The position numbers and the translations under genes were made by a program. DNA of 64,000 nt from a phage, in NCBI GenBank assembly GCA_024875585.1, contig GCA_024875585.1_4107.1; one strand, 5' to 3'. This document shows, piece by piece, positions 1-64,000 of this stretch. Position 1 is the stretch's first letter. Each line of letters opens with the position of its first letter. The notes under the pieces were generated by a model, which saw only the letters and a program-made list of their open reading frames with translations, ran no database searches and was not told the origin of the DNA.

Positions 1-72
1 AACTTCTATTTCGATTACAGATACGTAAAGAAAGCTATAGATAACGATATTAATAAACCACACGGGGGTTGA
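1..72 (+). CDS. 3' end of an upstream family-A paralog (partial)
   Basis: In-frame translation ...NFYFDYRYVKKAIDNDINKPHGG* resembles the C-termini of downstream paralogs (e.g. SFYFDYEYVEN); stop TGA 70-72. Confidence 0.4.
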   Translation, partial: NFYFDYRYVKKAIDNDINKPHGG

Positions 73-73
73 A

Positions 74-544
74 ATGAGTTTAGAAAGAGCATTAGAGATT
101 GCGAAGTTAATTGATTTATGCAGCAAAGAAATTGTATCAAATTGTCTCAATGGATATCTATTCAAGGAAGGTAAATCATATTGTCGAATGAGATACGATG
201 ACAGTAGTGAGTATATTCACATGTATGAAGAAGACCTTGATGATTCCGAAATAACACTGAATGGGTGTGATGTTAATCTGGAAGATAATTACATTTACTT
301 CAGTCGTGGTGCTGATATTTTAATACAAGAAACATCAATTCAACATGTGAATCCAGATGTATATCTTCCATATTCAGTACTGGATAATGACTGGGGAAGT
401 GAAGAGGTTTACTTTCAGCATAATACTATCTACGATGAAGATGTGCTTGACAAGCTTGTCATTCTGTGGTACTTTAAGAACACTGATACTCCCAACTTCT
501 ATATGGATTTGGATCTACTACGAGTTATAAAAGAGGATATATGA
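74..544 (+). CDS. family-A small acidic protein (MSL..AL N-terminus; PYSVLDNDWG..EEVYFQHNTIY..LWYFK)
   Basis: 156-aa ORF, ATG after GGGGG RBS; shares N- and C-terminal motifs with the next three ORFs; ATGA overlap with next gene. Confidence 0.7.
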   Translation: MSLERALEIAKLIDLCSKEIVSNCLNGYLFKEGKSYCRMRYDDSSEYIHMYEEDLDDSEITLNGCDVNLEDNYIYFSRGADILIQETSIQHVNPDVYLPYSVLDNDWGSEEVYFQHNTIYDEDVLDKLVILWYFKNTDTPNFYMDLDLLRVIKEDI

Positions 545-984
545 GTTTAGCAAGTGCACTTAAACTGGCACACAAAATACATCACTTCCACGATAACATA
601 AAAAGTGGGTTCTATGGTGATAAAGTAAGTGCATTGGGTAATGAGTATTATCTATCAGGTATAAAGACATACTCTGATGATATTTTACTTATGGGACATG
701 ATAAAGACAATACTATACAGTACTCTTCATGTAGTCAATATACTAGTTTTATGGTATATATTCCAGGTACTAAGATTACGTTTGACACATCAAATTCACC
801 TGTTGACTTCGGGGTACTTGATGGCCCGTGGGGTACTGAAGAGTATTACTTCCAACAGAGTCTTATTTTCAACCAAGAAATTCTTGATTCCTTGGTTGTT
901 TTGTGGTACTTTAAGGAATTGAATTTTGAACCATTCTTTCTTGACTGGGGAGCATGTGAGTATTTAAGTACAGGGGATTTGTAA
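541..984 (+). CDS. family-A small acidic protein (EEYYFQQSLIF..LWYFK)
   Basis: 147-aa ORF, start/stop coupling both sides, conserved family motif. Confidence 0.7.
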   Translation: MSLASALKLAHKIHHFHDNIKSGFYGDKVSALGNEYYLSGIKTYSDDILLMGHDKDNTIQYSSCSQYTSFMVYIPGTKITFDTSNSPVDFGVLDGPWGTEEYYFQQSLIFNQEILDSLVVLWYFKELNFEPFFLDWGACEYLSTGDL

Positions 985-1472
985 TGTCGTTACAAAGTGC
1001 ATTAAAAGAAGCAAAGAAAATCCATGAGTACATGATTATGGTACAAGAAGGTTCAGTCCCAGGTGTGTATAAAACATCTGATACTGAATTTTTTGTAAAA
1101 GACCGTGACGATTATGATGAGTCAGAGATATGTGCAGAAACGTTAGTACTGCACACTGATACTGGTGATAGTGATAACTGTGAATATCATATGTACAATC
1201 AGTACATTAGTTATTGCCGTAATGAAGATATTACCATCTACAACACAGATATTGATGCTGATGACACTATCATTCCGTATTCAGTACTGGAAGGTCCGTG
1301 GGATAGTGAAGGGTATTACTTTCAGAATAGTACTATCTACAATGAAGAAGAACTGGATGTTATTGTGATTATGTGGTACTTTAAAAGTATTGACTCCAGT
1401 AGTTTCTATTTTGATTATGAATATGTAGAGAATACAGTAGGAGAAGGTAATGTCATTACAAAGTGCTCTTGA
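984..1472 (+). CDS. family-A small acidic protein (EGYYFQNSTIY..MWYFK)
   Basis: 162-aa ORF, TAATG coupling, conserved family motif. Confidence 0.7.
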   Translation: MSLQSALKEAKKIHEYMIMVQEGSVPGVYKTSDTEFFVKDRDDYDESEICAETLVLHTDTGDSDNCEYHMYNQYISYCRNEDITIYNTDIDADDTIIPYSVLEGPWDSEGYYFQNSTIYNEEELDVIVIMWYFKSIDSSSFYFDYEYVENTVGEGNVITKCS

Positions 1473-1896
1473 AAAAGCAAAAGAAATACATGGATACTTT
1501 GAAGATATAAAGGCAGGAAAGTTCAAAGAAGTATACAAAGCCGAGAACGGTAACTACTACAAAGATGAAATATATAATAATTCCGTTGGTGTAAGGGTTA
1601 TTCTTGAGTTGAATTCCAATAGTCCTGTGTCGTTTTCTGAATACAATAGAGATGCAGAATTCATTAGTTATGTTGAAAATGGTAGCATTCGTTTTATTAA
1701 TAGACAAAAACCATTAATTTTGAATTATGAAGTTCTGGATGGTCAGTGGGATAATGAAGAGTATTACTTCCAAAACAGTACTGTATACGACGATGAAGTA
1801 CTTGAAGCATTAGTTATTATGTGGTACTTCAAGAGTATTAACTGTCCTCGATTTTATTTGGATTTCGAAGAACTTGGTAAAGATCCAGAGGTATAG
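1450..1896 (+). CDS. family-A small acidic protein (EEYYFQNSTVY..MWYFK)
   Basis: 148-aa ORF with conserved MSLQSAL N-terminus and family motif. Confidence 0.7.
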   Translation: MSLQSALEKAKEIHGYFEDIKAGKFKEVYKAENGNYYKDEIYNNSVGVRVILELNSNSPVSFSEYNRDAEFISYVENGSIRFINRQKPLILNYEVLDGQWDNEEYYFQNSTVYDDEVLEALVIMWYFKSINCPRFYLDFEELGKDPEV

Positions 1897-1897
1897 A

Positions 1898-2212
1898 ATG
1901 AAAAACTTATTCAGTGTTCAGTACGTTCCAGGTGAAATTAGTTTATTGTATCTCTTTGACCATGATAATTCATTATTACTAGTAGTAAAGAAATGTCAAG
2001 CTAGTTCGTTTGTTGAATACATTCACGATAATGAATATATACCTGATTTTTTAGAGTGCGATTATTACGATGATCATGAATCATTTATTTTTCAGGAATC
2101 GCTAGTATGGGACAAATCGATTAACTTCTTTACGTTAATTGAATTACAAAAGCAAGTGAAGTATCATTGGGATTATTTAATTACACAGGATTACATTGAG
2201 ATAGAAATATAA
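1898..2212 (+). CDS. family-A-like protein (ESFIFQESLVWD)
   Basis: ORF; ATG at 1898 preceded by GAGG; divergent family motif. Confidence 0.55.
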   Translation: MKNLFSVQYVPGEISLLYLFDHDNSLLLVVKKCQASSFVEYIHDNEYIPDFLECDYYDDHESFIFQESLVWDKSINFFTLIELQKQVKYHWDYLITQDYIEIEI

Positions 2213-2454
2213 TGACTAAAAATGAATTTGATTCACTTTGTACTGTTTATAATTCATTAACAGAAATACCTAACTTTATTAGTTATATTTCAGCTTTAAA
2301 TCACATTATGCATAGTTTTGAACAATCGTTTGAAGAGAAATATGCTGGAAGAAAAGTTCTATGTCATATGCCAATGTACTTAGGAGATGGTGAGCCTTAC
2401 ACTACAAGTACTACATGTGAAATAAAAAATATAATATATTATTGGGTACTATAG
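2212..2454 (+). CDS. hypothetical small protein (family-B-like EKYAGRKV motif)
   Basis: 80-aa ORF, start overlaps previous stop. Confidence 0.5.
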   Translation: MTKNEFDSLCTVYNSLTEIPNFISYISALNHIMHSFEQSFEEKYAGRKVLCHMPMYLGDGEPYTTSTTCEIKNIIYYWVL

Positions 2455-2515
2455 AATTCACAGTATCCAATGGCGGTAGTTATATGTACTTTAGAGATGG
2501 AGTGGTTGAATTATT

Positions 2516-2965
2516 ATGAGTTACGAAAGTGCAATCAAGAAAGCAAATGATATTCTACGCGTCGTTCAATTCTTCAAAGAAAATCCTGAATACGTAGATG
2601 ATAAAAACCAAGAGCACGATGAGAGATTGAGACGAAAAATTATCTCTTTATTTGACACTAATAAAGATAATTGGAGTCTAATTGAGTTAGCATACGATTA
2701 TATTTCATTGAACCGAAATGATGATGTAGTTAAGATAGAAAGGCATGAGTCAGAAGAATCTTTTAGAATTTCAGATATTTTATCCCTGAGTACTGAAGAA
2801 GGGTACTTCCAGGGTAGCACTCTTTATAATGAAGAAACACTTGACAATCTATGCACATTCAGTGTAATATATCAGAAATCTGTACTAGATATATTTTATC
2901 TTGACACTGCTGAACTGCATACCCTAACCAATTTTGTTACTACCGAAGAGGCTACATTCGAGTGA
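2516..2965 (+). CDS. family-A small acidic protein (EEGYFQGSTLY)
   Basis: 149-aa ORF, family motif. Confidence 0.65.
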   Translation: MSYESAIKKANDILRVVQFFKENPEYVDDKNQEHDERLRRKIISLFDTNKDNWSLIELAYDYISLNRNDDVVKIERHESEESFRISDILSLSTEEGYFQGSTLYNEETLDNLCTFSVIYQKSVLDIFYLDTAELHTLTNFVTTEEATFE

Positions 2966-3498
2966 TGAAAGTTAACATTAATGACTTTGATGCATTACAA
3001 GATTTATCAAAAAAGATTCGCACCATCGTACCAGTACTTAAAAAATGCAGTACTGGTTTAATCGATCCTAGTTCTGTTGTCAATGAGAAGTACAATTTTC
3101 ATCGTGTATTACAGGGGACAGGTGCATTTCAGAAGTGTGAGGTACGTGAGAAACATGTAATTGATACATCGTTGTTTTCTATTGGTGCACCTGTGTCAAA
3201 CAATACTATTTTCCTGGATGCCGCTGGAAATATTCAACAATTAACATTTAAGAAAAGGAAAAAGAATAATAACATTGGTGTGTACGAGATGAAGTGGGGA
3301 CAGCCAGAGTTGATGCGTGACATTCACATTCCTAAGTACAATTTCAATGCATTTGAAGAACAGTGTTTTCAACTTTCTTGTACTGACCCTGACTATGCTA
3401 TCATTCAATTCTATATGGAATTGCAGATTGCATTTAATAGTAATTTGTATATTAACTTATTGGCAATGAACATAGATGAAGTATTCAAAAACATTTAA
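2962..3498 (+). CDS. family-A-like protein (EEQCFQLSCTDPDY)
   Basis: 178-aa ORF, ATGA overlap, divergent motif. Confidence 0.55.
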   Translation: MMKVNINDFDALQDLSKKIRTIVPVLKKCSTGLIDPSSVVNEKYNFHRVLQGTGAFQKCEVREKHVIDTSLFSIGAPVSNNTIFLDAAGNIQQLTFKKRKKNNNIGVYEMKWGQPELMRDIHIPKYNFNAFEEQCFQLSCTDPDYAIIQFYMELQIAFNSNLYINLLAMNIDEVFKNI

Positions 3499-3694
3499 TC
3501 GAATTGAATACATGAGAACTGTGAGAGCGGTGTGGAATATATGGTACACTACTAAACCAAAAATGGATTACCATGATTTTAAGCTCTTGTTCTTTGTTGG
3601 CTCTAACAAACAGGATGTTGCAATGAAGGGTTATATTCAGCACTTACAGGAACTAATCCAGAAGAGAATATATGAAAATAATAGACCAAAATGA
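3476..3694 (+). CDS. hypothetical protein
   Basis: 72-aa ORF in operon-like context; no recognisable motif. Confidence 0.4.
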   Translation: MKYSKTFNRIEYMRTVRAVWNIWYTTKPKMDYHDFKLLFFVGSNKQDVAMKGYIQHLQELIQKRIYENNRPK

Positions 3695-3863
3695 CATTGC
3701 TAAACTATTCAATATATATTCTACTAGAATGATGCAAACAGATTCATATAGTACTAAATTCAAAGAGTTGAAAGTACTGATGTACTTGGGAACACAATAT
3801 CAGGAACAAGTTATTTTAGAATATATTAATTCATTAAAGAAGGATATCCGTGATGTACGATGA
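3672..3863 (+). CDS. hypothetical protein
   Basis: 63-aa ORF; overlaps neighbours. Confidence 0.4.
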   Translation: MKIIDQNDIAKLFNIYSTRMMQTDSYSTKFKELKVLMYLGTQYQEQVILEYINSLKKDIRDVR

Positions 3864-4413
3864 TTTAGATCTTGCGTTTGAACGCATGAAAATTTTAATG
3901 CAATGCAATGAAATGCATGAGACAATCCGTCGCACCAAAGGGATTGAATATACAAGTAAACTATTCTCATACGAAAGTCGTCGAGGGATGGATCATTTTT
4001 ACTGCACTGATTGTTCAAAGTTTTCAGTACTGAAATATTATCATCCTACTGTTTCCAATAATAGTTTAATATCCACATATGACGGTGATCTGTTTAGTGT
4101 AATGTATGACACATTACATCCATCAATTTCAATATATAAAGATTGCGATAGTAGTCTATCGTATATAATTGAAGATTACTTATCTCCTAATACTGAAGAG
4201 AATATATTTCAAAACAGTGTATTGCATGATGAATTAAGTATAAAATGCATCTATATGTTCAATAAGTTAAAAGAATACGTTGATAATAATTACTTAATTG
4301 ATGAGTTAGCTGTGTTTTCGGTTTCAGTTTTCAATACAAATGATGTTGATATGAAATACTATAACGAAATTTGTAAAGTACATAACATGTATAAGGAACT
4401 CTTATGCTACTAA
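3850..4413 (+). CDS. family-A-like protein (ENIFQNSVLHDE)
   Basis: 187-aa ORF, motif. Confidence 0.6.
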   Translation: MMYDDLDLAFERMKILMQCNEMHETIRRTKGIEYTSKLFSYESRRGMDHFYCTDCSKFSVLKYYHPTVSNNSLISTYDGDLFSVMYDTLHPSISIYKDCDSSLSYIIEDYLSPNTEENIFQNSVLHDELSIKCIYMFNKLKEYVDNNYLIDELAVFSVSVFNTNDVDMKYYNEICKVHNMYKELLCY

Positions 4414-5006
4414 ATGCCAATAAATGTTGTAGTGCAAATGTGCATTTGTTTTTTAAGAAATTGGCAAATGATATTATATATATGCAGGAAATGATTTACC
4501 ACAAACGAACAGATTTAGAAAAAGCATTAGGACAGTTCTCATTTATGCTTGATGGTGATATATTTCTACATGGTGATACATTGCGAACAGTACTGGACGG
4601 AAATTCAAATAGAAGTTTCATTTGTACAAATAATAAATTTTCTTCCCCGATGTGCCGTACTTTTTATAATCCTGATTCGGACTTATATCAAGTGTCGTAT
4701 TCTAAAGGTGCAATTGAATCATCATATTGTGATAGTTCAGCTTTAGGTAAAAGTCGTCCATATATGCAATCATTTGAAATTGAACTCATCAGTACTGATG
4801 AAGATGCAATGTTCACAAATGATATAACGATGGATCGTGAATCGGCAATGATATATATTACAAATTCTATGCATACATTCTTTCAACGATTAGAATTTGA
4901 TAATGTATATATATCAAATGTAAATATTTTCAATGATCTGTGTCAGTACTTGAAAAGTGTTTGTGATTTTGATGAAAGCTATTGTAAGCTTTATACTGAG
5001 GTATAA
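4404..5006 (+). CDS. hypothetical protein (divergent family-A-like, EDAMFTNDI)
   Basis: 200-aa ORF. Confidence 0.5.
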   Translation: MLLNANKCCSANVHLFFKKLANDIIYMQEMIYHKRTDLEKALGQFSFMLDGDIFLHGDTLRTVLDGNSNRSFICTNNKFSSPMCRTFYNPDSDLYQVSYSKGAIESSYCDSSALGKSRPYMQSFEIELISTDEDAMFTNDITMDRESAMIYITNSMHTFFQRLEFDNVYISNVNIFNDLCQYLKSVCDFDESYCKLYTEV

Positions 5007-5011
5007 AACAA

Positions 5012-5374
5012 ATGAACACATTAAGTATTACATACTATACAACTAAAAAATTAGTTACTTGTTTAATATCATTGAAGTCAAAAAATGATGATATGTTTGA
5101 TATGGCTGCATATGAATTAGAATTATCAGAAGATGGTTTCAAGATCTATGAAGTATATAGCTATGTTCGTGAAGATGTAATTGACACTACACTAATGCAA
5201 GAGGATGAGTTATTCCAAGAAAGTTTAGTATGGGATAATAAGTACGATTGTAACTTTGATTTCTTATGTTTAATCCAAAAAGAAATGAAAAGAATCTTTG
5301 ATAATTATCCAATCAAACGTTTCAGTACTGCACCTGAGCAATATAAAAGGATTATATTCACCTATGAAGATTGA
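5012..5374 (+). CDS. family-A-like protein (DELFQESLVWDN)
   Basis: 120-aa ORF, motif. Confidence 0.6.
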   Translation: MNTLSITYYTTKKLVTCLISLKSKNDDMFDMAAYELELSEDGFKIYEVYSYVREDVIDTTLMQEDELFQESLVWDNKYDCNFDFLCLIQKEMKRIFDNYPIKRFSTAPEQYKRIIFTYED

Positions 5375-5741
5375 ATTTGAAGTTATTACATATAGTATAG
5401 GTGATGGTATCCGTTGCTACGTACAAGCAAGGCATATTGTTCCTGATGATAAACTGTCACCCAAAAGTTTCCTTATTACACAAGAACTCTTAGATATTAA
5501 CAGAGAGAACAAGTATACATATTATCTCACTAAGGGTTATTGTGGTTCGCGTGGATTTAATATTGTAGCTGTTTCTAGAGATGAAATTGATGATTTAACT
5601 GAGTACGGTGAAGAAGAGATGTTCCAGTACAGTACTGTTTTTAATGAACTGGATGTGTTTCTGTTACGAAAAATACAACACATTATGCAAGAATGTTTGC
5701 ATCATAAGAGAGGTATTGTATGCGACGTGAATCTGAATTAG
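5364..5741 (+). CDS. family-A protein (EEMFQYSTVF)
   Basis: ORF; start moved to ATG 5364 (track start 5298 would overlap the previous gene extensively). Confidence 0.55.
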   Translation: MKIEFEVITYSIGDGIRCYVQARHIVPDDKLSPKSFLITQELLDINRENKYTYYLTKGYCGSRGFNIVAVSRDEIDDLTEYGEEEMFQYSTVFNELDVFLLRKIQHIMQECLHHKRGIVCDVNLN

Positions 5742-6061
5742 TTAAAGTAATGTACGCTACTCATATTAAACTACTACTTGTGAAATTTGATTATAATATA
5801 AAACATAATGATTTCTATACGTTGATTCGTGATGAAAATTCATTCTCATTGCGATGCAACAATATACAGTGGACGATAAGTGATTTTACTTCACTTGACG
5901 AGGGTGAATTATTTCAAGAATCATTAGTTTTTAATAGTAATATAAAAGTTGATATAGAAGCAATTAAACAGTATCAAATATTATTAAACAAAATTATTGA
6001 TTGTTATCCATGTGAAATAGGTGGTCATATGCAGTTCAAATCAAAAATGTACGAGTTATGA
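5720..6061 (+). CDS. family-A-like protein (GELFQESLVF)
   Basis: 113-aa ORF, motif. Confidence 0.55.
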   Translation: MRRESELVKVMYATHIKLLLVKFDYNIKHNDFYTLIRDENSFSLRCNNIQWTISDFTSLDEGELFQESLVFNSNIKVDIEAIKQYQILLNKIIDCYPCEIGGHMQFKSKMYEL

Positions 6062-6068
6062 GGTCTTT

Positions 6069-6605
6069 ATGTTAGATAAAAAAATGAACACTGGAACTCT
6101 ATACAATCATCTTAAGTTGGATACTTTCGAATCAGCTATCAGTACTGCACAAGATATTATCGATATTATTAAGTACATTAAAGAAAATAAGTTAAAATGT
6201 GTGAAAACACCCGAACGTACAATGTATAAAGATGACTGTATTCACGTATCTGTTGTTAATCCAAAAGATAAGGATGGTAATAGAGATTTCTATAATAACA
6301 GTGAGCAGTTCGAATGTGAATATGATCCAGAATTCAGAGGTGGTTTCATGTGTTACAGTATGAAGGATACCTCACACATTGAGATACGTTCATCTAAAGG
6401 TGGCATACGTACATTAGAGTTCATTGATATAGTTTTAAATCAGGAATACTACTTTCAACTATCATTATTGTTTCCTGCATACGATTTAGGAGTTCTATTC
6501 ATGTATAAGTACTTTCATGAGCACTGGAATGAAGACTTCTATCTGGACTTAGAAGATTACCAATTAGTTTGGGAAGAAATGGTAGAACTTCGCAACCACT
6601 CTTGA
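6069..6605 (+). CDS. family-A protein (QEYYFQLSLLF)
   Basis: ORF; ATG 6069 after GAGG; motif. Confidence 0.6.
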   Translation: MLDKKMNTGTLYNHLKLDTFESAISTAQDIIDIIKYIKENKLKCVKTPERTMYKDDCIHVSVVNPKDKDGNRDFYNNSEQFECEYDPEFRGGFMCYSMKDTSHIEIRSSKGGIRTLEFIDIVLNQEYYFQLSLLFPAYDLGVLFMYKYFHEHWNEDFYLDLEDYQLVWEEMVELRNHS

Positions 6606-6631
6606 CACCCACCGATTTTTTGTGATATAAT
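6602..6631 (+). promoter_or_regulatory. sigma70-type promoter TTGACA-N18-TGaTATAAT (extended -10)
   Basis: TTGACA 6602-6607, TG 6623-6624, TATAAT 6626-6631, in the intergenic gap before ORF 6665; followed by a 5'UTR hairpin ccctttata...taaaggg. Confidence 0.6.
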
Positions 6632-6664
6632 CCCTTTATATTAATTTTAAAGGGTTATAACACA

Positions 6665-7141
6665 ATGTCCAACGAACTCACATTCACCAATGCACAAAAA
6701 ATAGCAAAAGACATTATCAGGGTTTATAAATTCCTTGCGAATGTTACTGAAGATTTTTTAATTGATAAAAATAAAGTTATTAAGCGAAATGGATACCTTT
6801 CCTTTATGGATGGGTTGCTCTATAGTTCAGATGAGTCAGCTTGTAGTATTAGAGTACTTGATACTGTACCAAGTGGTGATTTTATTTCATACCATTTTCC
6901 AAGTTCAGATAAGTTCAAATACTACAATAGTATTCTCATAGCAGAAGACTTTGATACGATTGTAATTAACACTGAAGAAGAGTTCTTCCAGTACAGTACT
7001 GTGTACCCAGAGAGGATTGTTTTCAGTTCAGTGATTTACACTACCCTTAAAAATGAACTAAATTCCGATAGTGATCATTTCTACTTGGACCTGAATAATA
7101 TCGATTGTATTATTGAGTACATGGAGAAAAATGGTTTATGA
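6665..7141 (+). CDS. family-A protein (EEEFFQYSTVY)
   Basis: 158-aa ORF, motif. Confidence 0.65.
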   Translation: MSNELTFTNAQKIAKDIIRVYKFLANVTEDFLIDKNKVIKRNGYLSFMDGLLYSSDESACSIRVLDTVPSGDFISYHFPSSDKFKYYNSILIAEDFDTIVINTEEEFFQYSTVYPERIVFSSVIYTTLKNELNSDSDHFYLDLNNIDCIIEYMEKNGL

Positions 7142-7641
7142 TTACTACAGAATATGATTACAATAGTGTCCTTGAATTTGCAGAAAATATATATCGTATT
7201 GCAAAGGAGTTCAGAAGTCCTGAGCCGTTTGGTGGTATGTTCGAATACGATGAGTTTAGTTCATCAAAAGGAAGACTTGCATTTACTAATGGTAGAGGTA
7301 ATCAAATCTACACAGAGTACTTTGATGACAATGACTTTCATCACAAAGCCGAATACATTTCATATTGCCCTGGGTCTGATTTGAAGATTCATATTGAAAG
7401 AGATATAGAAAATGTATTTGTTCCATATACTGATTTAGTCTTCATGTCAGAGGAAATGTACTTTCAGGAATCATTGATTCATGATACAAAAGTACTTAAT
7501 ACTATATTATTATATGGTACACTACTTAATCATTACAAATACAATCAAAGATTCTTTTTAGATTTAGTAGTATACCATCAATGTGTGGATTATTTGAATG
7601 CAAAATCAGACAACAATTCAGTACATGACCGATGGTTCTGA
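7138..7641 (+). CDS. family-A protein (EEMYFQESLIHD)
   Basis: 167-aa ORF, ATGA overlap, motif. Confidence 0.65.
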   Translation: MITTEYDYNSVLEFAENIYRIAKEFRSPEPFGGMFEYDEFSSSKGRLAFTNGRGNQIYTEYFDDNDFHHKAEYISYCPGSDLKIHIERDIENVFVPYTDLVFMSEEMYFQESLIHDTKVLNTILLYGTLLNHYKYNQRFFLDLVVYHQCVDYLNAKSDNNSVHDRWF

Positions 7642-7960
7642 ATACTTTGTTTCAAGATATGTAATAAATCACAACCATTATGTAACCTATATTCCAGAGT
7701 ACAATCAATTTTATATCCAGATTTATCAACATAATGGAAAGAGAAATGATATATATTCAGAAATAAAAATCCCTGATTATAGTTCTTTATCAGAAGAGGA
7801 ATTGTTTCAGGAGAGCACTATCAGTACTGAAGATGTGTACGAAATAATGGAGTACCAGAAGGTACTTAAACATTTTCATGAAACAAATGATATACAAATA
7901 GATATTGTTAAACCGTGGTGTTACAATACATATGAGGTAAATTATGTTAGAAATGATTAA
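7625..7960 (+). CDS. family-A-like protein (EEELFQESTIS)
   Basis: ORF; start at ATG 7625 overlapping the previous stop. Confidence 0.55.
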   Translation: MTDGSEYFVSRYVINHNHYVTYIPEYNQFYIQIYQHNGKRNDIYSEIKIPDYSSLSEEELFQESTISTEDVYEIMEYQKVLKHFHETNDIQIDIVKPWCYNTYEVNYVRND

Positions 7961-8357
7961 AATTATGCAACGCTGTCTTATTGACAAATACGGGATATAT
8001 GGATATCGTTTAAGTGCTCCTATTGACAAAAATAAAACAACCTATGTAAGCTATAATGCTGTACAAGGGTTTGATATATTCATTAGTACTAATTATCAAA
8101 TCAAACAAGCTAAAGATGTGTCTATAATGACCCCTGATGAGTTATTTCAGTACAGCTTAGTTCTTCCTACATGTATCGATTTACAACGTCTAGGAGCGAT
8201 ACAGAAGGTTTTACGCGAACATAAAGTACAACCCAATAAAGTCACGCACATTCCAGAAACAATCTTCAAAACTATAGAAGTAGAAACCCCTGATTATATG
8301 TTAAGTGATGATGAATTCTACGAGAAGCACTTCCCTGGTAAAGTTTGGAGAGACTAA
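7944..8357 (+). CDS. family-A-like protein (DELFQYSLVL)
   Basis: 137-aa ORF. Confidence 0.55.
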   Translation: MLEMIKIMQRCLIDKYGIYGYRLSAPIDKNKTTYVSYNAVQGFDIFISTNYQIKQAKDVSIMTPDELFQYSLVLPTCIDLQRLGAIQKVLREHKVQPNKVTHIPETIFKTIEVETPDYMLSDDEFYEKHFPGKVWRD

Positions 8358-8839
8358 TGAACCGAAAGTACAGAGAAACTATGAAGTTCGCTAAGGAGTG
8401 TTTAGAGACATTTGATTTCATTTTCGATAACAAAGACTCACTTGGTCATTACTTCGTAATTACAAAAAAAGAAGATGAGAGATACAAGTGTCAAAGATTA
8501 GGATACAGTATTGAGTTATCCTTAATGAGTGATGGTATGATAAACTCCATATATGAATCTGGTAAGACAGATTACATTTCATTTAGATCATGGAGTGATA
8601 ATATAATGTTCTTGAGTCCTAATGGAAGTAAATATCCATTCATTAATGATTTATCAGAAGAAAGTTACTTTCAAAACAGTTTAATTTATACAGAAAAAGA
8701 ACTCAAAATGTTATTCATAATGTCGTACTTTAAAAAGTACTGTAAATTTAAATCATTATCTTTTGAGATTTCTGCGATGAAAGTATTCATTAAAAATGTA
8801 AAAGAATTAAAGAGGGCTTTTAATGTACATAGAAAATGA
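8357..8839 (+). CDS. family-A protein (EESYFQNSLIY..MSYFKK)
   Basis: ORF; ATG 8357; motif. Confidence 0.6.
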   Translation: MNRKYRETMKFAKECLETFDFIFDNKDSLGHYFVITKKEDERYKCQRLGYSIELSLMSDGMINSIYESGKTDYISFRSWSDNIMFLSPNGSKYPFINDLSEESYFQNSLIYTEKELKMLFIMSYFKKYCKFKSLSFEISAMKVFIKNVKELKRAFNVHRK

Positions 8840-9365
8840 GAATGTAAAATGCATCACTGACATTTGTATAAAATTAATGAAAATTTTCATTAACCCAAAA
8901 TACAAGACTCGTTCTTTACGTCATAATATTGATGAGCATTGTACCATTAATATCCTAGGTAGTATTCTTGATGTAAAATATGATGGTAAACTGTTATTCG
9001 GTATAAGAGAAGAGAAAATGGATGATGCATTCTTTTCTTGTAAAGATAAATTTGAACCTTCTGATTATAAAGTAATTATTCGTGATGATAGCATCTATAT
9101 TAGTAGTGATTATTCAAATTACTTCGATAAAATATACACTGAAAACGTTGATTACCATTATGAAATGCTAGATTTACCAGTAACAGACATTGATATGGAG
9201 AGAATCAAATTTTCATTATCAGATAATGAGTACTTAGGTATACAAACATATTATTCACTACAAGGAAAGATTCCACCTGCTATGTATATAAGGATTGAGA
9301 TTGGTAATGTATTCAATGATAAGGTTATATCAATTGCTGATAAAATATTGAGGGTTGAATTATGA
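8823..9365 (+). CDS. hypothetical protein
   Basis: 180-aa ORF; no family motif recognised. Confidence 0.5.
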   Translation: MYIENENVKCITDICIKLMKIFINPKYKTRSLRHNIDEHCTINILGSILDVKYDGKLLFGIREEKMDDAFFSCKDKFEPSDYKVIIRDDSIYISSDYSNYFDKIYTENVDYHYEMLDLPVTDIDMERIKFSLSDNEYLGIQTYYSLQGKIPPAMYIRIEIGNVFNDKVISIADKILRVEL

Positions 9366-9925
9366 ATGGCCATGATTACCAATTCCATAGACTAGAATTT
9401 AGACACTGTGTTGCATATGCAAAAACATTAATGTGCATCATTGACACTCTTTCATCCGAACAATTTTGTAAGGATAATGATTTATTGCTGAAAAAAGGTC
9501 GTATAACATCATCCGATATCGGTATTGAACTATTTGTTGAAATCAGTGTTGATACCGGAGACAGTACAAGGGCTGGTTGTATAGGTCATATTGGTACACA
9601 TTGTTTCACATGGAATCCAAATACAAGTCAAGTTAGAATTGATTATAGAAATTCACGTTGGGTTGATCTTAGTACTGAATCAGATTTAGAATCAGTTATG
9701 TTCCAGCTAAGTTTAATTCACGATCCTAATGAACTTCTTTATATTATTACTTTCAGTTATCTGTTACAAAACTACGATAGTCCATCAGGGTTTTTCATAG
9801 AATCAGATATAGATGAAATTATGGAAGAGATTCCTAGTTTAAAGAATATTCTGGAAGAAAAAGATTTCTATAAGGACTTCAGAGATTTATACGACATGCA
9901 CTTGGAGTTATTTAAGAATGGATAA
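9362..9925 (+). CDS. family-A-like protein (ESVMFQLSLIHD)
   Basis: 187-aa ORF, ATGA overlap. Confidence 0.6.
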   Translation: MNGHDYQFHRLEFRHCVAYAKTLMCIIDTLSSEQFCKDNDLLLKKGRITSSDIGIELFVEISVDTGDSTRAGCIGHIGTHCFTWNPNTSQVRIDYRNSRWVDLSTESDLESVMFQLSLIHDPNELLYIITFSYLLQNYDSPSGFFIESDIDEIMEEIPSLKNILEEKDFYKDFRDLYDMHLELFKNG

Positions 9926-10436: not shown

Positions 10437-10460
10437 AGACCCGTTATGGGTCTTTTTGTG
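10437..10460 (+). terminator. rho-independent terminator
   Basis: hairpin agaccc-gttat-gggtct followed by TTTTT. Confidence 0.7.
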
Positions 10461-10468
10461 TTTATGGC

Positions 10469-10497
10469 TTTACAAGAGCATTCAGGTGTGTTATACT
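10469..10497 (+). promoter_or_regulatory. sigma70-type promoter TTTACA-N17-TATACT with upstream TG
   Basis: TTTACA 10469-10474, TATACT 10492-10497, between a terminator and the next ORF. Confidence 0.5.
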
Positions 10498-10524
10498 TGA
10501 TTTCAAATAGAGTTGGAGGAATAT

Positions 10525-13736: not shown

Positions 13737-13741
13737 ATTTA

Positions 13742-13768
13742 TACCAGGGGTTGACTCTGGTATTTTTG
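13742..13768 (+). terminator. rho-independent terminator
   Basis: hairpin taccag-gggttgact-ctggta then TTTTT. Confidence 0.55.
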
Positions 13769-13797
13769 TATGATACATTATCCTAAAGGAGAATTTT

Positions 13798-15531: not shown

Positions 15532-15532
15532 T

Positions 15533-17807: not shown

Positions 17808-17851
17808 TAAAAAAACGCACATGGAGTGCATATGAAGATCAAGGATAGATC

Positions 17852-18325: not shown

Positions 18326-18327
18326 GT

Positions 18328-52859: not shown

Positions 52860-54299
52860 ATGAAAAAATATACAATTGACACAAACGTACTACTATCTGA
52901 TCCAAATGCGTCTGTTGCTTTTGATGGTGCTGCAATCATTCTACCATTTACAGTACTGGAAGAATTGGATTCGATTAAGAGTCGCAATGTTGATGTTTCA
53001 CGTGATGCTCGTGTTGCGATTCGTAACATTGAAGCAATTATTGCAGAGGCATCACATAATGAGATTAGTTGTACTGGTGTTAATATTGCTGATGTTCATA
53101 CCAATATGAATCCTGATAGCAAATTGTTTGTTATTACAACCGAAGAAGCTGAGGCACTAATTCGTACTAAAGGTTCAGACGAGAAAGTTCAAACCCTTCT
53201 TAAAAGTACTGTACCTGATGATAAAATTATTCTGGTAGCTTTAGCAACCGAATCAGTACTGGTAACTCGTGATATCAACATGCGTATCAAAGCACTAAGT
53301 TATGGTGTCGAGGTACAAGACTATCGTCATGATATTGTTATTGGTGATAGTGATTTGATGCACATTGGTCAACATCATTTGGAACTCAATTTTTGGGATG
53401 TATATAGCAATTTAGCAAATACAAATATTAAAACTGAACAAATTGGTCGTCGATTGTATCATTACATTCCTAAAAGCTTGATTGGTCATTTACTTCCACA
53501 AAATCTATGCATTGGTGATTATCTATATGATGATGCTGATGTATTATTTGTATATGAAGGCCAATCAGCCATTGAGGAAGATGATGGCACACTAACACCA
53601 GAAGATATTTTGGTATTCCAAGACATTGGTCAATCTGTAGCTTTGCGTGCTAAAGTATGGGATATTAAAGCAAAGAATATTCAACAAGCACTTGCAATCA
53701 ACAGTATTCTCGATCCTGATGTACACCTAACAGTGCTGCTAGGTTCTGCTGGAACTGGCAAAACATTAATTACGATTGCTACTGCACTAGAGTTAGTACT
53801 GGAAAAACGCAAATACGACCGTATTATCTTCTCTAAAACACAAGATTCACAGTTTGAAGATATAGGATTCTTGCCAGGTTCTGAGACAGAGAAAGTTATC
53901 CCATTCTGTGGACCTGCAATTGATGCTCTTGAGTATCTTCATAAAGATGATGTATCACCACAAGGTAGCATCGAAGAGATTCTCAAACGTAACGTGATGC
54001 AATTTAAAGCATTGAACTTTATTCGTGGTCGTTCTTTTGCCAATACAATTCTAATTGTGGATGAAGCACAGAACTTAACACCAGCCCAGTTAAAAACTGT
54101 CTTGACAAGAGCCGGAGAAAACTGTAAAGTAATCATACTTGGTAACCTAGCACAGATTGATAACAAGTTTATCAGTCCAGTAAACAGTGGTTTGACATAT
54201 GTAACTGAAAAATTCAAGGATTGGAGTGGTTGTCGTATCATTGAATTAGAAGGTGTTGTTCGTTCACCACTTGCTGAATTTGCTGAAGAAAATATGTAA
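52860..54299 (+). CDS. phoH: PhoH-like ATPase with N-terminal PIN domain
   Basis: PIN-like N-terminus (YTIDTNVLLSDP...LEELD); Walker A GSAGTGKT and Walker B IVDEAQN. Confidence 0.85.
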   Translation: MKKYTIDTNVLLSDPNASVAFDGAAIILPFTVLEELDSIKSRNVDVSRDARVAIRNIEAIIAEASHNEISCTGVNIADVHTNMNPDSKLFVITTEEAEALIRTKGSDEKVQTLLKSTVPDDKIILVALATESVLVTRDINMRIKALSYGVEVQDYRHDIVIGDSDLMHIGQHHLELNFWDVYSNLANTNIKTEQIGRRLYHYIPKSLIGHLLPQNLCIGDYLYDDADVLFVYEGQSAIEEDDGTLTPEDILVFQDIGQSVALRAKVWDIKAKNIQQALAINSILDPDVHLTVLLGSAGTGKTLITIATALELVLEKRKYDRIIFSKTQDSQFEDIGFLPGSETEKVIPFCGPAIDALEYLHKDDVSPQGSIEEILKRNVMQFKALNFIRGRSFANTILIVDEAQNLTPAQLKTVLTRAGENCKVIILGNLAQIDNKFISPVNSGLTYVTEKFKDWSGCRIIELEGVVRSPLAEFAEENM

Positions 54300-54783: not shown

Positions 54784-55341
54784 ATGTTTTTTGACCAAAC
54801 ATTTACGTTGTATCACGATTCTGGTAAAGTTGAGATTATTGATAATCTGCTACTGTACATTTCTGAGCATGAAGGGATAGACCGTTTTCATAGTAAGATG
54901 AAATTCGATTTAGCTGAATTCAACAAAAAGAATCGTGAAACTTTTTGGAAGAACCGATTCTATTATGAAATGTTCCCAGAAAGGTTTGTTGGTTATTATC
55001 TTTGTACTGAGAAAGGTTTATTAGTATCTCCAGATTTACTTATGGGTGAATACATGGTTCTCTATAATGAGTACTGGAAAAATAAACGTAACGCTCGTGA
55101 CATTGAATGGAGACACAAGCGTTCGTACATGTACAAACACAACCACTCCCGATACAAACGTCCTAAGACTCAACAAGAGCGTCGTATGGCGTGTGCGGTA
55201 TTGAAGGATGAGGGGGAACCTGATATACGTGGTAAGCGTAAAATGCGTTCAATACCTTCATACTGGGATGATATCAGAACAAGACACAGTACTGGCTGGA
55301 AATACAGTACTAAGCGTAAAAAACAATACAAAGGGAGCTAA
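54784..55341 (+). CDS. hypothetical protein with basic C-terminus
   Basis: 185-aa ORF with AAAGGAG RBS. Confidence 0.55.
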   Translation: MFFDQTFTLYHDSGKVEIIDNLLLYISEHEGIDRFHSKMKFDLAEFNKKNRETFWKNRFYYEMFPERFVGYYLCTEKGLLVSPDLLMGEYMVLYNEYWKNKRNARDIEWRHKRSYMYKHNHSRYKRPKTQQERRMACAVLKDEGEPDIRGKRKMRSIPSYWDDIRTRHSTGWKYSTKRKKQYKGS

Positions 55342-56545: not shown

Positions 56546-57517
56546 ATGAAAACTAAAATTATTTCTGAACAAAAAATCGGCAATACTACAGTACTGAATC
56601 TTGAAGTTCAAGATCTTAGTAATGTTCGTTCTCTTACTGTTTGTACTCAGAGAGATGATTTGACTGATTTTTATAGCTCCGAATACATGTCAGAAGAACA
56701 TTGGGATATGGGATGGTTAGACGGTAGTAGTTATATCAGTTCTCGTTATAGTTTTGGTTCTCATGAAAATATTGAACAAGTAAAAAATGAGTATATTAAA
56801 CTCAGTGATACTATTGAAATGAAAGAAGAAGATTGTGTAGAACTTTTCATTTTTGAATTCGATGCAGGAAATGGTAATTCATTACTAGTAAGTAATATTG
56901 AAGAACATTTAATGTATCATGATATTGAAGATGTAGATTTTAAAAGTATTAAAAATGTTGTTCATATGGTTGGTGGTAGTATTACTGATGATTCAGATAT
57001 CGGTCATAATATTTCACTGTGCTTAATTTCTCATCCAAAAACTCGTGGTTTTAAAGTTCCACAAGATGAAACTTACGTGTTTGAAACTGCTGATGAAGGA
57101 ATTTATCCTTGGAATGATTATGTAGAATACTATGGTCATTTCTGTTCTGATATAAAAGAACTGAAAAAAGGCGAACGATATTTTGATATGTTCCGTGCTG
57201 CACAGCGTTTAGTACTGAATAATACTGAACTATTTCCTGATCGCGGTGAAGAAAATATGATTGATATTATCTTCAAGAACTATGATTATGTGCAGAACAT
57301 TCCTGATAATGTACATTTGGAATATGTTCACGGTTCTTCAAACAAATTCTATAATATTGAATTGAATGCTCCAGTGTGTGAAGTAATCATTGAGTACGGT
57401 GCTATTGGTAAAACCAGTACTACCGATGGTGAAGAATTCGAAACTATTGAAGAAGCACGTAAGTTCTTCGAGAAGAAAGTAATTTCCAAAATTAAAAGTG
57501 GTTATATCCCAAAATGA
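56546..57517 (+). CDS. hypothetical acidic protein (323 aa)
   Basis: long ORF. Confidence 0.55.
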   Translation: MKTKIISEQKIGNTTVLNLEVQDLSNVRSLTVCTQRDDLTDFYSSEYMSEEHWDMGWLDGSSYISSRYSFGSHENIEQVKNEYIKLSDTIEMKEEDCVELFIFEFDAGNGNSLLVSNIEEHLMYHDIEDVDFKSIKNVVHMVGGSITDDSDIGHNISLCLISHPKTRGFKVPQDETYVFETADEGIYPWNDYVEYYGHFCSDIKELKKGERYFDMFRAAQRLVLNNTELFPDRGEENMIDIIFKNYDYVQNIPDNVHLEYVHGSSNKFYNIELNAPVCEVIIEYGAIGKTSTTDGEEFETIEEARKFFEKKVISKIKSGYIPK

Positions 57518-57761: not shown

Positions 57762-57928
57762 AAGAAGTAATTGGCTACAAATGTAAAAATTGTGGCAAAG
57801 ATATGGGTAAGCATTCAGTACAAGGTATGGCTTGTCCAAATCCAGGACGTGGTAATTTTAGAGGGTTCAGTACTGAAAAGTCTTATGAACCTGATTATTC
57901 AAAACCAGTGATGGGCTATAAGTTATGA
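57758..57928 (+). CDS. small Cys-containing protein (56 aa, CKNC...CPNP)
   Basis: ORF below track cutoff; ATGA overlap with the next gene. Confidence 0.35.
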   Translation: MKEVIGYKCKNCGKDMGKHSVQGMACPNPGRGNFRGFSTEKSYEPDYSKPVMGYKL

Positions 57929-60384: not shown

Positions 60385-60606
60385 ATGAAAATTGAACGCT
60401 ACCAAAACCATACAGTTGTGGCTGAAGATGATATATTTTATTATTATATTTTCAGACCCACACACTGTTTACAAATAACGACATTTGAGAATGATAATTT
60501 CAAAGATGTCAACTTCCATATAACAGATTTAGCTAAATATTCCAGTACTGAACACTTTAGTAATCTAGTATTTGTGTACTGTATTCCAAACTCAAATAAT
60601 AAGTAG
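60385..60606 (+). CDS. hypothetical small protein
   Basis: 73-aa ORF. Confidence 0.45.
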   Translation: MKIERYQNHTVVAEDDIFYYYIFRPTHCLQITTFENDNFKDVNFHITDLAKYSSTEHFSNLVFVYCIPNSNNK

Positions 60607-61918: not shown

Positions 61919-61952
61919 TATTTGTGCAAATAAAAACCAATGTGACTTTTCC

Positions 61953-61966
61953 TTGATATATATCAA
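61953..61966. promoter_or_regulatory. FNR-type binding site TTGAT-N4-ATCAA
   Basis: perfect TTGATATATATCAA palindrome centred about 41.5 bp upstream of the predicted nrdD transcription start. Confidence 0.6.
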
Positions 61967-61988
61967 GAGAAATAGCCTGTTCTGACGC

Positions 61989-61994
61989 TATAAT
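61989..61994 (+). promoter_or_regulatory. -10 hexamer TATAAT of the nrdD promoter
   Basis: TATAAT with no good -35, as expected for a class II activator-dependent promoter. Confidence 0.5.
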
Positions 61995-62058
61995 ATTGTC
62001 TGGTGATATTAAATATCTTCACCCCCAGATGATTTCAAAATACAAGGAATGTACAATG

Positions 62059-63861
62059 CAGCTAGATAAATTATATAATGACGTAACGAATTTCCTAAAT
62101 CAGAGTAATACAGATCTCACAAATGAAAATGCGAACAAAGATGCGAAGTGCGTCAATACACACAGGGATTTACTTGCAGGTATCCTATCTAAACATTATT
62201 CACAAGATGTTATCCCAAATGAACTAATGCAGTGGCATAATGATGGTTATGGACATATTCATGATTTAGACTACTACATCAGCCCATTAACCAACTGTTG
62301 CTTAGTCAACTACCCAGATATGCTAAAAAATGGATTTACTATTGGCTGTGCTAAAATTGAAGAACCAAAAAGTTTTAGTGTTGCATGTACAGTACTAACA
62401 CAGATTGTACAAGCTGTAGCTAGTTCACAATACGGAGGACAATCGTTGGCTCACATTGATGTCGGGTTGGAACCTTACGTTAAAAAGTCATGGGATAAAC
62501 TATTAGAAAAACAAAAGAAATATAATCTAAGTGATGAGTACATTGAAGAAGAATTACGAAAAGAAGTATACGATGGATGTCAAACATTACTTTATCAAAC
62601 TAATTCAATGATTAGTACTAATGGTCAAGCTGCATTTATTTCTCTTAGTTTAGGTTTGAATACTTCCAAATTTGGTAAATTAATCACCGAACAGTACTTA
62701 AAAGTTCATGAGAATGGTTTAGGTAAAGATAAGATTACTCCAGTGTTTCCTAAAGTGATTTTCTTTTTACAAGATGGTATAAACATGAATACCAATGATT
62801 GTAATTATGACCTTAAACAGTTAGCTATGCGTTGTGCATCAAAGCGAATCTACCCAGACTTTGTTTCAGTTCCATTAAATCACAAAGTGACGGGAAGTAG
62901 TAGTACTGCTGTAACACCGATGGGCTGTCGTTCATTCTTAGGAAAATGGGAAGATTCAAATGGAAATGAACAATATAACGGTCGCTTCAATTTAGGTGTA
63001 GTTTCTATCAATTTACCACTAATTGCTCTTGAAAGTGCTACAGATGGAGAGTTTTTTGATAAGATAGATGAGCATATGAATATTGCATATCGTGCTCAGA
63101 TGAACCGCGTCGAGCGTTTAAAAGGTACAAAAGCGAAACAGAATCCAATTTTGTTTATGGAAGGTGCATTAGCACGTTTAGATGCAGAAGAGACTATTGA
63201 CAAGCTATTTTACAATGGTTATGCTAGTATTAGTATTGGTTATGTTGGACTTGTTGAATGTTCGGAAATCCTCACTGGTTCTATCAGTAAGGAGTTTTGT
63301 ATGTCAGTACTGAATTATATGAAAGTAAAATGCGATGAGTTTAAAAAAGAAAGTAATATTGCTTTTAGTTTATATGGAACTCCAGCAGAGTCACTTTGTT
63401 ATAAATTTGCACGTTGCATTGAAGCAAAGTATCCGTCTGTTCTAAAACGTAATTATATTACAAATTCATTCCATCAACCAGTATGGGTTGAAAGTTCTGC
63501 TTTTGAAAAGTGGGATTATGAGGAAAACTTTGCTTATCTAAGCAATGGTGGTAATATTAGCTATGTCGAAACACCAAACTTAACAAACAACATTCAAGCA
63601 CTTGAAACATTAATCAATTATGCCTATAAAAAAATTCCATATTTTGGAATAAACCAGCCTATAGATCATTGTCATAAATGTAATTTTGAAGGTGAATTCA
63701 GCGTCGATAAAAACGGTTTCCACTGTCCAGTTTGTAATAATAGAGATGAAAAATCTATGTCAGTTATTCGAAGAGTTAGCGGATATCTTAGTGCACCAAA
63801 TAGTCGCCCATTCAATAAAGGAAAGCAAGATGAAGTGATTCAGAGAATTCGCCATTTATAA
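62059..63861 (+). CDS. nrdD: anaerobic ribonucleoside-triphosphate reductase (class III RNR)
   Basis: C-terminal glycyl-radical motif RRVSGYLS and Cys-rich CHKCNFEGEF...CPVCN zinc site; N-terminal NENANKD region; start set at ATG 62059 with AAGGAA RBS (track start 61996 rejected). Confidence 0.9.
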   Translation, partial: QLDKLYNDVTNFLNQSNTDLTNENANKDAKCVNTHRDLLAGILSKHYSQDVIPNELMQWHNDGYGHIHDLDYYISPLTNCCLVNYPDMLKNGFTIGCAKIEEPKSFSVACTVLTQIVQAVASSQYGGQSLAHIDVGLEPYVKKSWDKLLEKQKKYNLSDEYIEEELRKEVYDGCQTLLYQTNSMISTNGQAAFISLSLGLNTSKFGKLITEQYLKVHENGLGKDKITPVFPKVIFFLQDGINMNTNDCNYDLKQLAMRCASKRIYPDFVSVPLNHKVTGSSSTAVTPMGCRSFLGKWEDSNGNEQYNGRFNLGVVSINLPLIALESATDGEFFDKIDEHMNIAYRAQMNRVERLKGTKAKQNPILFMEGALARLDAEETIDKLFYNGYASISIGYVGLVECSEILTGSISKEFCMSVLNYMKVKCDEFKKESNIAFSLYGTPAESLCYKFARCIEAKYPSVLKRNYITNSFHQPVWVESSAFEKWDYEENFAYLSNGGNISYVETPNLTNNIQALETLINYAYKKIPYFGINQPIDHCHKCNFEGEFSVDKNGFHCPVCNNRDEKSMSVIRRVSGYLSAPNSRPFNKGKQDEVIQRIRHL

Positions 63862-64000
63862 TATAGTATAACATGATTACCTCGATTTAACATAAATATT
63901 TAAAATTAAATCGAGTAAACTAATTATGAAATGAAAAATGAACAAAGAATCTAATTTTTTGTTCATTTGTTTATGAAATATCGTTTGATGATAGAATATT

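Follow-up and report, generated by a model that had tools for sequence, protein, structure and literature searches.

The 64,000-nucleotide stretch of phage DNA analysed here (contig GCA_024875585.1_4107.1, positions 1 to 64000, hereafter the window) carries the 8-bp palindrome CAGTACTG in a 73-fold excess and is entirely free of the tetranucleotide GCGC. The window was found to share 96% identity with Escherichia phage UE-S1 and about 91% with the 121Q/PBECO4-type Asteriusvirus phages, which have genomes of ~350 kb. The same enrichment and the same absence extend over whole jumbo-phage genomes and recur in an unrelated, lambda-like temperate clade infecting the same host family. In our tentative reading, to which a probability of roughly 45% is given, the word may be a distributed recognition site for a symmetric protein on duplex DNA, with a reader that is more probably encoded by the host and with a protective or marking role.

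An exact recount gave 41 copies of CAGTACTG, the number which the sequence-only reading had estimated by eye. The expectation from zero-order base composition is 0.56, dinucleotide-preserving shuffles gave a mean of 0.78 (maximum 3), and the shuffling of synonymous codons inside the open reading frames (ORFs) of the window gave 5.8 ± 1.6 (maximum 10), although this last null already carries a codon usage shaped by the motif. The massive over-representation which had been claimed is therefore upheld by k-mer counting against both kinds of shuffle. The sequences around the 41 sites show no relation to each other (at most 55% identity over 60 nt) and only two pairs occupy possibly paralogous positions, so that the count is not inflated by repeats or paralogues.

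Analysis of the shorter and longer words has shown that the exact 8-mer, although truly enriched, is not the sole enriched unit as the earlier description had implied. In the window, GTAC occurs 411 times against 190 expected (2.2-fold), AGTACT 155 times (7.2-fold; 16.9 ± 4.5 under shuffling), and CAGTACT/AGTACTG is raised about 20-fold. In 350 kb of the relative EC22.5-2 the excess grows in the same manner, from 2.2-fold for GTAC and 7.7-fold for AGTACT to 59-fold for CAGTACTG and 129-fold for TCAGTACTGA. Among the sixteen xAGTACTy contexts, C..G reaches 59-fold and G..C (GAGTACTC, 1.2-fold) is the only one that is not enriched. The one-nucleotide deviants of the 8-mer are concentrated at positions 1 and 8 (12- to 15-fold, against 1- to 10-fold inside the word) in both clades. 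The flanks are T-rich upstream and A-rich downstream with a consensus near tt-C-AGTACT-G-aa, and the flank tTCAGTACTGr of the sequence-only reading was rightly drawn, T making up ~50% at positions -1 to -3 and G/A followed by A downstream. The half-sites are unenriched (CAGTA followed by any base other than C, 1.24-fold; AGTA followed by any base other than C, 0.87-fold). Enrichment of the perfect two-fold symmetric word together with unenriched half-sites argues for recognition of the duplex by a symmetric protein and not for an RNA signal, and the RNA-processing site that had been proposed is for the same reason unlikely. The selected unit is thus a two-fold symmetric duplex word of ~8-12 bp. 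A longer repeat, promoter or terminator was ruled out, as the logo is uninformative beyond ~12-14 bp and the genes in which the sites lie are unrelated. The words neighbouring AGTACT are mildly raised (1- to 2-fold), and no single-mismatch neighbour is depleted (AGTATT/AATACT, 1.07-fold), which argues against VSR-type directional repair.

The excess does not depend on the reading frame. The window sites are read as nCA-GTA-CTG in 18 cases, as nnC-AGT-ACT-Gnn in another 18 and as CAG-TAC-TGn in two, with three at gene boundaries; the occurrence in all three frames noted earlier is thus true, though the CAG-TAC-TGn frame is rare. Against synonymous shuffles, AGTACT was observed 69, 32 and 47 times in the individual frames (18.8, 8.6 and 11.8 expected) and the 8-mer 2, 18 and 18 times (0.2, 0.9 and 1.4 expected, 10- to 20-fold each), so that for the two words every frame lies 3.7- to 20-fold over expectation. 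The corresponding codon pairs also exceed the prediction from dipeptides and codon usage (AGT-ACT 69 against 18.6, GTA-CTG 32 against 4.1 and CAG-TAC 27 against 5.8). Moreover, the dipeptides Ser-Thr, Val-Leu and Gln-Tyr are 40-60% commoner than amino-acid composition predicts; the DNA word has shifted the proteins toward the dipeptides of the motif.

The sites are also conserved. In the comparison with a 91%-identical relative, AGTACT sites carry 25 substitutions against 77.5 expected from codon position and base, and their third codon positions carry 16 against 44.3, whereas the flanks are near expectation. Overall, the conservation of AGTACT sites exceeds background 2- to 3-fold in each of two clades. 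At larger distance the positions are not retained: DNA ligase orthologues at 65% nucleotide identity hold 5-6 cores each (~0.5 expected) and have just 2 positions in common. Copy number is kept while positions turn over at constant density. Selection on the nucleic acid and not on the protein, as the sequence-only reading had argued, is borne out by the excess in every frame, the codon pairs, the third positions and the non-coding sites of the temperate clade. A protein or codon artefact, confined to a single frame or to one paralogous family, was ruled out by the synonymous shuffles, the per-frame tests, the low identity of the flanks and the same non-coding sites.

All 41 sites in the window are exact matches. 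Twelve of them lie in the first 8 kb, at 375-382, 1282-1289, 1776-1783, 3048-3055, 4025-4032, 4588-4595, 4790-4797, 5323-5330, 5630-5637, 6140-6147, 6994-7001 and, on a gene boundary, 7822-7829. They are followed by the sites at 10914-10921, 12982-12989, 14496-14503, 18028-18035, 19825-19832, 20393-20400 and 21082-21089, by one at 22649-22656 within the gene of a Dam-family methyltransferase (22608-23129), and by those at 23666-23673, 24018-24025 (gene boundary), 24389-24396, 25272-25279, 27051-27058 (gene boundary), 34390-34397, 38560-38567 and 39447-39454. Two sites, 40175-40182 and 40883-40890, fall within the DNA ligase gene, and the remaining ones are found at 41418-41425, 44029-44036, 44811-44818, 49481-49488, 52951-52958, 53254-53261, 55287-55294, 56589-56596, 57868-57875, 60543-60550 and 63305-63312. 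The graded palindrome as a whole is carried by the entire window, from 1 to 64000. Of the start positions reported by eye, 35 of 41 were exact and six were off by 10 and are corrected here (18038 to 18028, 27041 to 27051, 40185 to 40175, 49491 to 49481, 52951 in place of 52961, and 57868 in place of 57878). The 2.7-kb minus-strand structural gene (46074-48746) has no CAGTACTG yet contains 4 AGTACT cores; at the density of the window ~1.7 copies of the 8-mer are expected and P(0) is ~0.18, and the missing 8-mer is due to chance, as had been suspected. The top octamer density of the window is found in a block of ~35 consecutive same-strand ORFs of 110-210 aa (74-18325), whose stops and starts overlap or abut and whose scanned members are without a Pfam match.

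The pattern is genome-wide. EC22.5-2 contains 202 copies of CAGTACTG, 913 of AGTACT and no GCGC in 350 kb. The density of the octamer peaks (up to 24 per 10 kb) at the terminal-repeat and early-gene region and is lowest in the structural-gene region; a direct terminal repeat of ~21 kb with small early genes has been described (PMC13070987). In each genome region, AGT-ACT makes up 42-59% of the Ser-Thr dipeptides, a uniform share which argues for a genome-wide pressure, with the density reflecting the tolerance of the proteins, and which rules out a function specific to the early or terminal-repeat region. The short-range spacing of AGTACT is approximately random given the local density. Pairs 20-22 bp apart (two helical turns) are found in EC22.5-2 about 2.5 times as often as local density predicts (20 against ~8); with the otherwise near-random spacing and just this weak excess, regular spacing or helical phasing was ruled out. 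Near the terminal-repeat region of EC22.5-2, a tandem array of ~14 RCC1-like (WD40_RLD) paralogues was also seen on the minus strand (L002:6790-24572), adjoining a ParE-like toxin domain and a DksA-type zinc-finger gene.

Among related jumbo phages, AGTACT is enriched 5.6- to 12.8-fold and GCGC is absent in Klebsiella phage RaK2, Cronobacter phage GAP32, Erwinia phage pEa_SNUABM_12 (Eneladusvirus) and IMG/VR relatives with 63-67% ligase identity. PA5oct, a phage of Pseudomonas, and XacN1, a phage of Xanthomonas, are more distantly related; AGTACT is found in them 1 time against 10 expected and 0 times against 7.5 expected, respectively, and GCGC is present. No enrichment of AGTACT was found in T4. 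The immediate flank varies with the genus: Asteriusvirus and RaK2, like the temperate clade, have C..G, the GAP32-like and Eneladusvirus phages have mostly A..T, and G at position -1 is depleted in all genera examined.

The absence of GCGC is as strict as the enrichment is broad. The window has 0 copies against 44 expected, and the 350 kb of EC22.5-2 have 0 against 292 expected from composition or 159 from a maximal-order Markov model. For the temperate clade the figures are 0 against 597 expected (Markov), while E. coli carries one GCGC per 146 bp. All loci examined with AGTACT at 5-fold or more have no GCGC. The strict coupling suggests one underlying system or one common selective environment. 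In the window, GGTACC (KpnI), CGTACG and ~25 GC-rich 6-bp palindromes are also at zero, and TGCA (1.6-fold) and CATATG (2.1-fold) are mildly raised. Almost all other palindromes are depleted there, so that the contrast with the general palindrome depletion of phages, which the sequence-only reading had drawn, is real. The palindromic-hexamer profiles of the jumbo phages and the temperate clade correlate with r = 0.86 after removal of AGTACT and the GCGC-containing words, against r = 0.07-0.21 with T4, PA5oct, DCP80 and E. coli.

The temperate clade came to light in a scan of IMG/VR for two octamers within 34 bp and then for a stricter three-site pattern, which recovered the jumbo phages along with dozens of contigs of 23-35 kb and 39-43% G+C. 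The loci are L073-L075, L115-L132, L141-L144 and L266-L348 from IMG/VR and L177 from Escherichia sp. ESNIH1 (PQKR01000003.1). In 28 of these loci (228 kb), CAGTACTG occurs 324 times (108-fold) and AGTACT 873 times (11.9-fold), whereas GCGC is found 0 times against 384 expected, GGTACC once and CGTACG three times (34 expected each). The half-site logo matches that of the jumbo phages. A larger pool of 55 loci (566 kb) showed an AGTACT divergence of 0.073 per base against 0.135 for control hexamers of the same composition, and 0.039 against 0.068 in a closer identity band; non-coding DNA makes up 13% of this pool and holds 22% of its octamers. Several intergenic regions of this clade have three to four sites in 70-180 bp (for example L144 7585-7745).

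The temperate contigs encode a lambda-type portal, a GpA terminase, an HK97-type capsid protein and a lambda tail tube and tip, as well as a large serine recombinase and a SegE-like endonuclease. In the contig portions examined, the sole protein in common with the jumbo phages is a T4-type lysozyme (42-48% identity), and no DNA methyltransferase motif was found in the portions scanned. Two contigs reach host junctions beside msyB, with flanks (mdoH-yceK, mdtG) 75-79% identical to E. coli, and across these junctions GCGC switches within a few bases from 0 inside to 7-15 per kb outside; the prophage ends can be read where GCGC reappears, at ~1150 in L341 and ~10000 in L342. Among the matches listed in a scan of bacterial contigs, the prophage in the chromosome of Escherichia sp. 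ESNIH1 is the only locus with the same signature. Megablast gave no match to the clade in GenBank phages, nor in 5,426 complete E. coli genomes. DCP80, the nearest GenBank relative by terminase (41% aa identity), shows neither the motif enrichment nor the GCGC absence. The record of this Escherichia phage (L349, PQ671644.1, 1-40000), classed as a T4-like Gaprivervirus, opens with a GpA-type terminase and non-T4 genes, its T4-like genes (motA, ndd, rIIA) begin at ~30 kb, and it may be a chimeric assembly. The clade consists of lambda-like phages of ~25-35 kb with a serine recombinase, integrated beside msyB in Enterobacteriaceae. The same motif with zero GCGC in such an unrelated clade is new here, and on the sequence comparisons the word and the GCGC absence appear to have evolved independently in it, by convergence.

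Candidate enzymes are few in the jumbo phage, where a motif scan returned only two DNA methyltransferases. One is the Dam-family N6-adenine methyltransferase (PF05869) in the window at 22608-23129. With the neighbouring cytidyltransferase it forms a conserved pair (22608-23659) kept in the Klebsiella and Erwinia relatives, and an Erwinia Eneladusvirus (L021) retains the pair together with the downstream order of RNA ligase, polynucleotide kinase, phosphatase and DNA ligase. The other, outside the window, is the only 5-methylcytosine (m5C) methyltransferase of the lineage, a protein of 286 aa (OR845138, 307362-308222; L008:7362-8219) whose best solved relatives are the catalytic domains of eukaryotic DNMT3A/3B/3C (E 3e-23), ahead of M.HaeIII and M.HhaI. 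RaK2 DNA is methylated, and m5CpG was found in it by bisulfite sequencing (PMC3622015); judged by its homology, the short DNMT3-like enzyme is probably the CpG enzyme which that result implies, and it is unlikely to be the reader of a 6-8-bp AT-rich word. The DNA of fEgEco12 is cut normally by ten restriction enzymes (PMC13070987) and is therefore not bulk-hypermodified. A Pfam scan of 296 of the ~565 ORFs of a relative and of the window proteins gave no restriction-enzyme or helix-turn-helix family among the families listed (one list holding 25 of 36); those seen include the Dam-family methyltransferase, the RCC1-like paralogues, the DksA-type zinc finger, ParE-like, Sir2 and PIN families and others.

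The phage-encoded binding or modifying enzyme which the sequence-only reading had suggested loses ground on two sides, because the unrelated temperate clade has the same motif with only the lysozyme in common and without a DNA methyltransferase motif in the portions examined, and because the jumbo phage itself offers just the Dam-family enzyme and the short DNMT3-like one. AGTACT is the recognition site of ScaI/Eco255I-type enzymes and GTAC that of RsaI. A type II restriction-modification or orphan methyltransferase target of either kind was rejected, as the enrichment is graded over 4-10 bp, the flanks are genus-specific and the motif scan gave no candidate beyond the two methyltransferases.

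An AGTACT-core word is kept by selection on double-stranded DNA, at about one core per 0.4 kb, throughout the Rak2-like jumbo genomes of the genera Asteriusvirus, Alcyoneusvirus, Mimasvirus and Eneladusvirus. In the proposed explanation, each copy would be a weak-to-moderate predicted binding or recognition site for a two-fold symmetric protein on duplex DNA and would add a small benefit, so that selection would act on the total number of copies and not on their positions, like Chi or HIP1. The reader would more probably be a protein or system of the host (Enterobacteriaceae) than a lineage-specific phage protein, and the presence of the word, with the absence of GCGC, would mark or protect the phage DNA during entry and replication. 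A host-side reader is preferred because two clades with common hosts converge, apparently without a common methyltransferase or DNA-binding gene. A phage-encoded reader is kept in consideration because the flanks are genus-specific and the sampling is incomplete.

Several points weigh against this explanation. No reader protein was identified. To our knowledge, SlmA is the only enterobacterial protein that recognizes an AGTACT core, and its flanks do not fit. A 50-kb sample of E. coli K-12 has 3 AGTACT against 4.9 expected, neither enriched nor clearly avoided, and so gives no host-side pointer to the reader. The genus-specific flanks fit a co-evolving phage protein more readily than they fit a host protein that is conserved. 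The temperate contigs were covered in part and small proteins evolve fast, so that a reader or methyltransferase common to the phages could be missed. Further, the protective or marking role is one that we infer purely from the pattern.

The explanation closest in anatomy is a methylation of the kind proposed for the highly iterated palindrome HIP1 of cyanobacteria, in which a methyltransferase of phage or host would modify GTAC or AGTACT and the sites would be kept by a mismatch-repair bias (Elhai's model for HIP1) or by a function that reads the methylation. HIP1 is likewise a palindrome of 8 bp that encloses palindromes of 6 and 4 bp (PMC4390886, PMC5861425), its deviants are reported at positions 1 and 8 as they are here in both clades, the Dam-family enzyme at 22608-23129 is conserved in the Klebsiella and Erwinia relatives, and RaK2 DNA is methylated (PMC3622015). 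However, the lack of a depleted neighbour of AGTACT leaves no sign of directional conversion, the DNMT3-like member of the only two methyltransferases suits CpG and not a 6-bp specificity, the temperate clade has no such motif in the portions examined, and a graded flank preference that varies with the genus is unlike the sharp specificity of type II enzymes; we consider this explanation unlikely. Neutral origin from a mutational, replication or compositional bias, without any function, would account for the neighbour words at 1- to 2-fold, as decaying sites would give, and for the nearly random spacing. It is largely refuted by the conservation of the sites at 2-3 times above background in two clades, and the replication machinery differs between them (one has a T4-like polymerase and the other presumably relies on that of its host), the trait is missing from close relatives of each clade, and amino-acid usage is bent toward the motif, so that hardly any credence is left for it.

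The coupling with GCGC can also be taken as the primary phenomenon, with a jumbo-phage nuclease or a widespread host defence attacking GCGC, CAGTACTG acting as a companion 'self' or loading signal, and the temperate clade representing resident prophages adapted to surviving in the same cells. GCGC is absent without exception in the window, the 350 kb and the temperate clade, E. coli is rich in it with the sharp jump at the prophage-host junctions, the enrichment and the absence are never apart in the loci examined, and both clades infect Enterobacteriaceae. On the other hand, no GCGC-specific nuclease was identified, the destruction of host DNA is of no obvious use to a temperate phage, the GCGC absence alone could result from the usual avoidance of a common restriction enzyme with a four-base site, and the link between AGTACT and GCGC is a co-occurrence with no mechanism; this alternative is quite improbable in our view. 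A hijack or decoy of SlmA, whose binding sequence GTGAGTACTCAC has the AGTACT core, would mean that phage DNA, replicating and distributed over the cell, blocks FtsZ-ring formation. The core is identical to that of the SlmA-binding sequence, and both SlmA and its target sites are conserved across E. coli, Salmonella, Klebsiella and Enterobacter (PMC3020112), the hosts of both clades, while the motif is missing from the relatives on Pseudomonas and Xanthomonas; in addition, filamentation is seen in cells infected by the Asteriusvirus Sharanji, in which the DNA extends along the cell (PMC11895373). Nevertheless, SlmA requires G1, T2, A4, G5 and a purine at position 3 (PMC3020112), whereas position 3 of the phage sites is occupied by C in 45-55% of cases, and G is depleted most strongly there (8-9%). 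The full site GTRAGYRCTYAC occurs 0 times in every phage sample, GAGTACTC is raised 1.2-fold only, GTR-AGTACT is found 19 times against ~51 expected (2.7-fold under), and the phage proteome has no SlmA homologue. Judged by sequence, the phages seem to avoid SlmA sites rather than to use them; identity with SlmA sites was ruled out on the flanks, the zero full sites and the missing homologue, and the hijack is kept as a minor and very unlikely alternative.

With respect to known systems, the closest phenomenon is HIP1 (GCGATCGC) and the alternate highly iterated palindromes of cyanobacteria, whose hallmarks are nested palindromes, a 15- to 300-fold excess, occurrence in all frames and conservation (PMC4390886, PMC5861425). 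Both are 8-bp palindromes with shorter palindromes nested inside, are hyper-abundant in all frames, are conserved beyond background, have their deviants at the outer positions and reach a density of about one per gene. The HIP1-type features found here are a genome-wide octamer excess of at least 15-fold, the nested enrichment with outer deviants, and conservation inside and outside genes. The phage word differs in being AT-rich, in residing on viral rather than cellular chromosomes and in being tied to the absolute absence of GCGC; moreover, it arose at least 2 times, in unrelated phages with a common host family, and with no evident methyltransferase of matching specificity.

Chi (GCTGGTGG), the octamer that modulates RecBCD in enterobacteria, is also a short and dense word found in all frames with small additive benefits, and it is read by host machinery. 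It is itself enriched in this phage lineage, with 28 copies in the 350 kb of EC22.5-2 against ~2 expected in a count that is uncontrolled for paralogous genes, and these genomes therefore accumulate words read by host machinery. In the window, 2 copies against 0.32 expected were seen, at 21859-21866 on the minus strand and 30505-30512 on the plus strand. Eleven of the 28 lie in the terminal-repeat and early region (L002, 30-50 kb), seven consecutive ones in one orientation, and CAGTACTG is also densest there. In contrast to CAGTACTG, which is a perfect palindrome with unenriched half-sites and no linked nuclease or helicase, Chi is asymmetric and acts in one orientation.

The SlmA-binding sequence has an identical central AGTACT, is the palindromic site of a dimeric protein and has a matching host range, but the flanks which SlmA requires are absent or disfavoured in the phage word. 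The numbers also differ, with ~50 SlmA sites per 4.6-Mb chromosome (PMC3020112) against ~900 cores per 0.35-Mb phage genome. A likeness to restriction-site avoidance is seen in that the same genomes shun GCGC, GGTACC, CGTACG and most GC-rich hexamers; however, AGTACT is enriched here, and it is PA5oct and XacN1 that avoid it. The DNA uptake sequences and uptake signal sequences of Neisseriaceae and Pasteurellaceae are likewise short words, hyper-abundant across coding DNA and kept by a molecular reader, but they are asymmetric, 9-12 nt long, found in competent bacteria and driven by uptake bias. We know of nothing comparable to them in phage DNA. Neither the motif nor the absence of GCGC was mentioned in the full-text literature searched, phage genome papers included.

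Phages are textbook avoiders of palindromes, and here one palindrome is held at about one copy per gene, altering amino-acid usage, across at least 4 jumbo-phage genera and an unrelated temperate group of the same host family. The twin signature of raised AGTACT and zero GCGC locates prophage ends to a few bases and flags members of these clades by composition alone. The outcome also gives the 30-year-old puzzle of HIP1 a second and experimentally far easier system, in which the coliphages are culturable, an oligonucleotide of 12 bp can serve as bait and recoding is simple. It points to an unrecognised protein-DNA interaction important for phage success in the Enterobacteriaceae, which include E. 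coli, Klebsiella and Salmonella as targets of phage therapy. A bolder version, which we regard as doubtful, is that the Enterobacteriaceae, or a mobile system common among them, read GCGC as a signal to attack DNA and CAGTACTG/AGTACT as a signal to spare or assist it, and that two phage lineages converged on this code. If true, this would be a sequence-encoded self/non-self discrimination of an undescribed kind, written into every gene by giant lytic myoviruses and small temperate siphoviruses.

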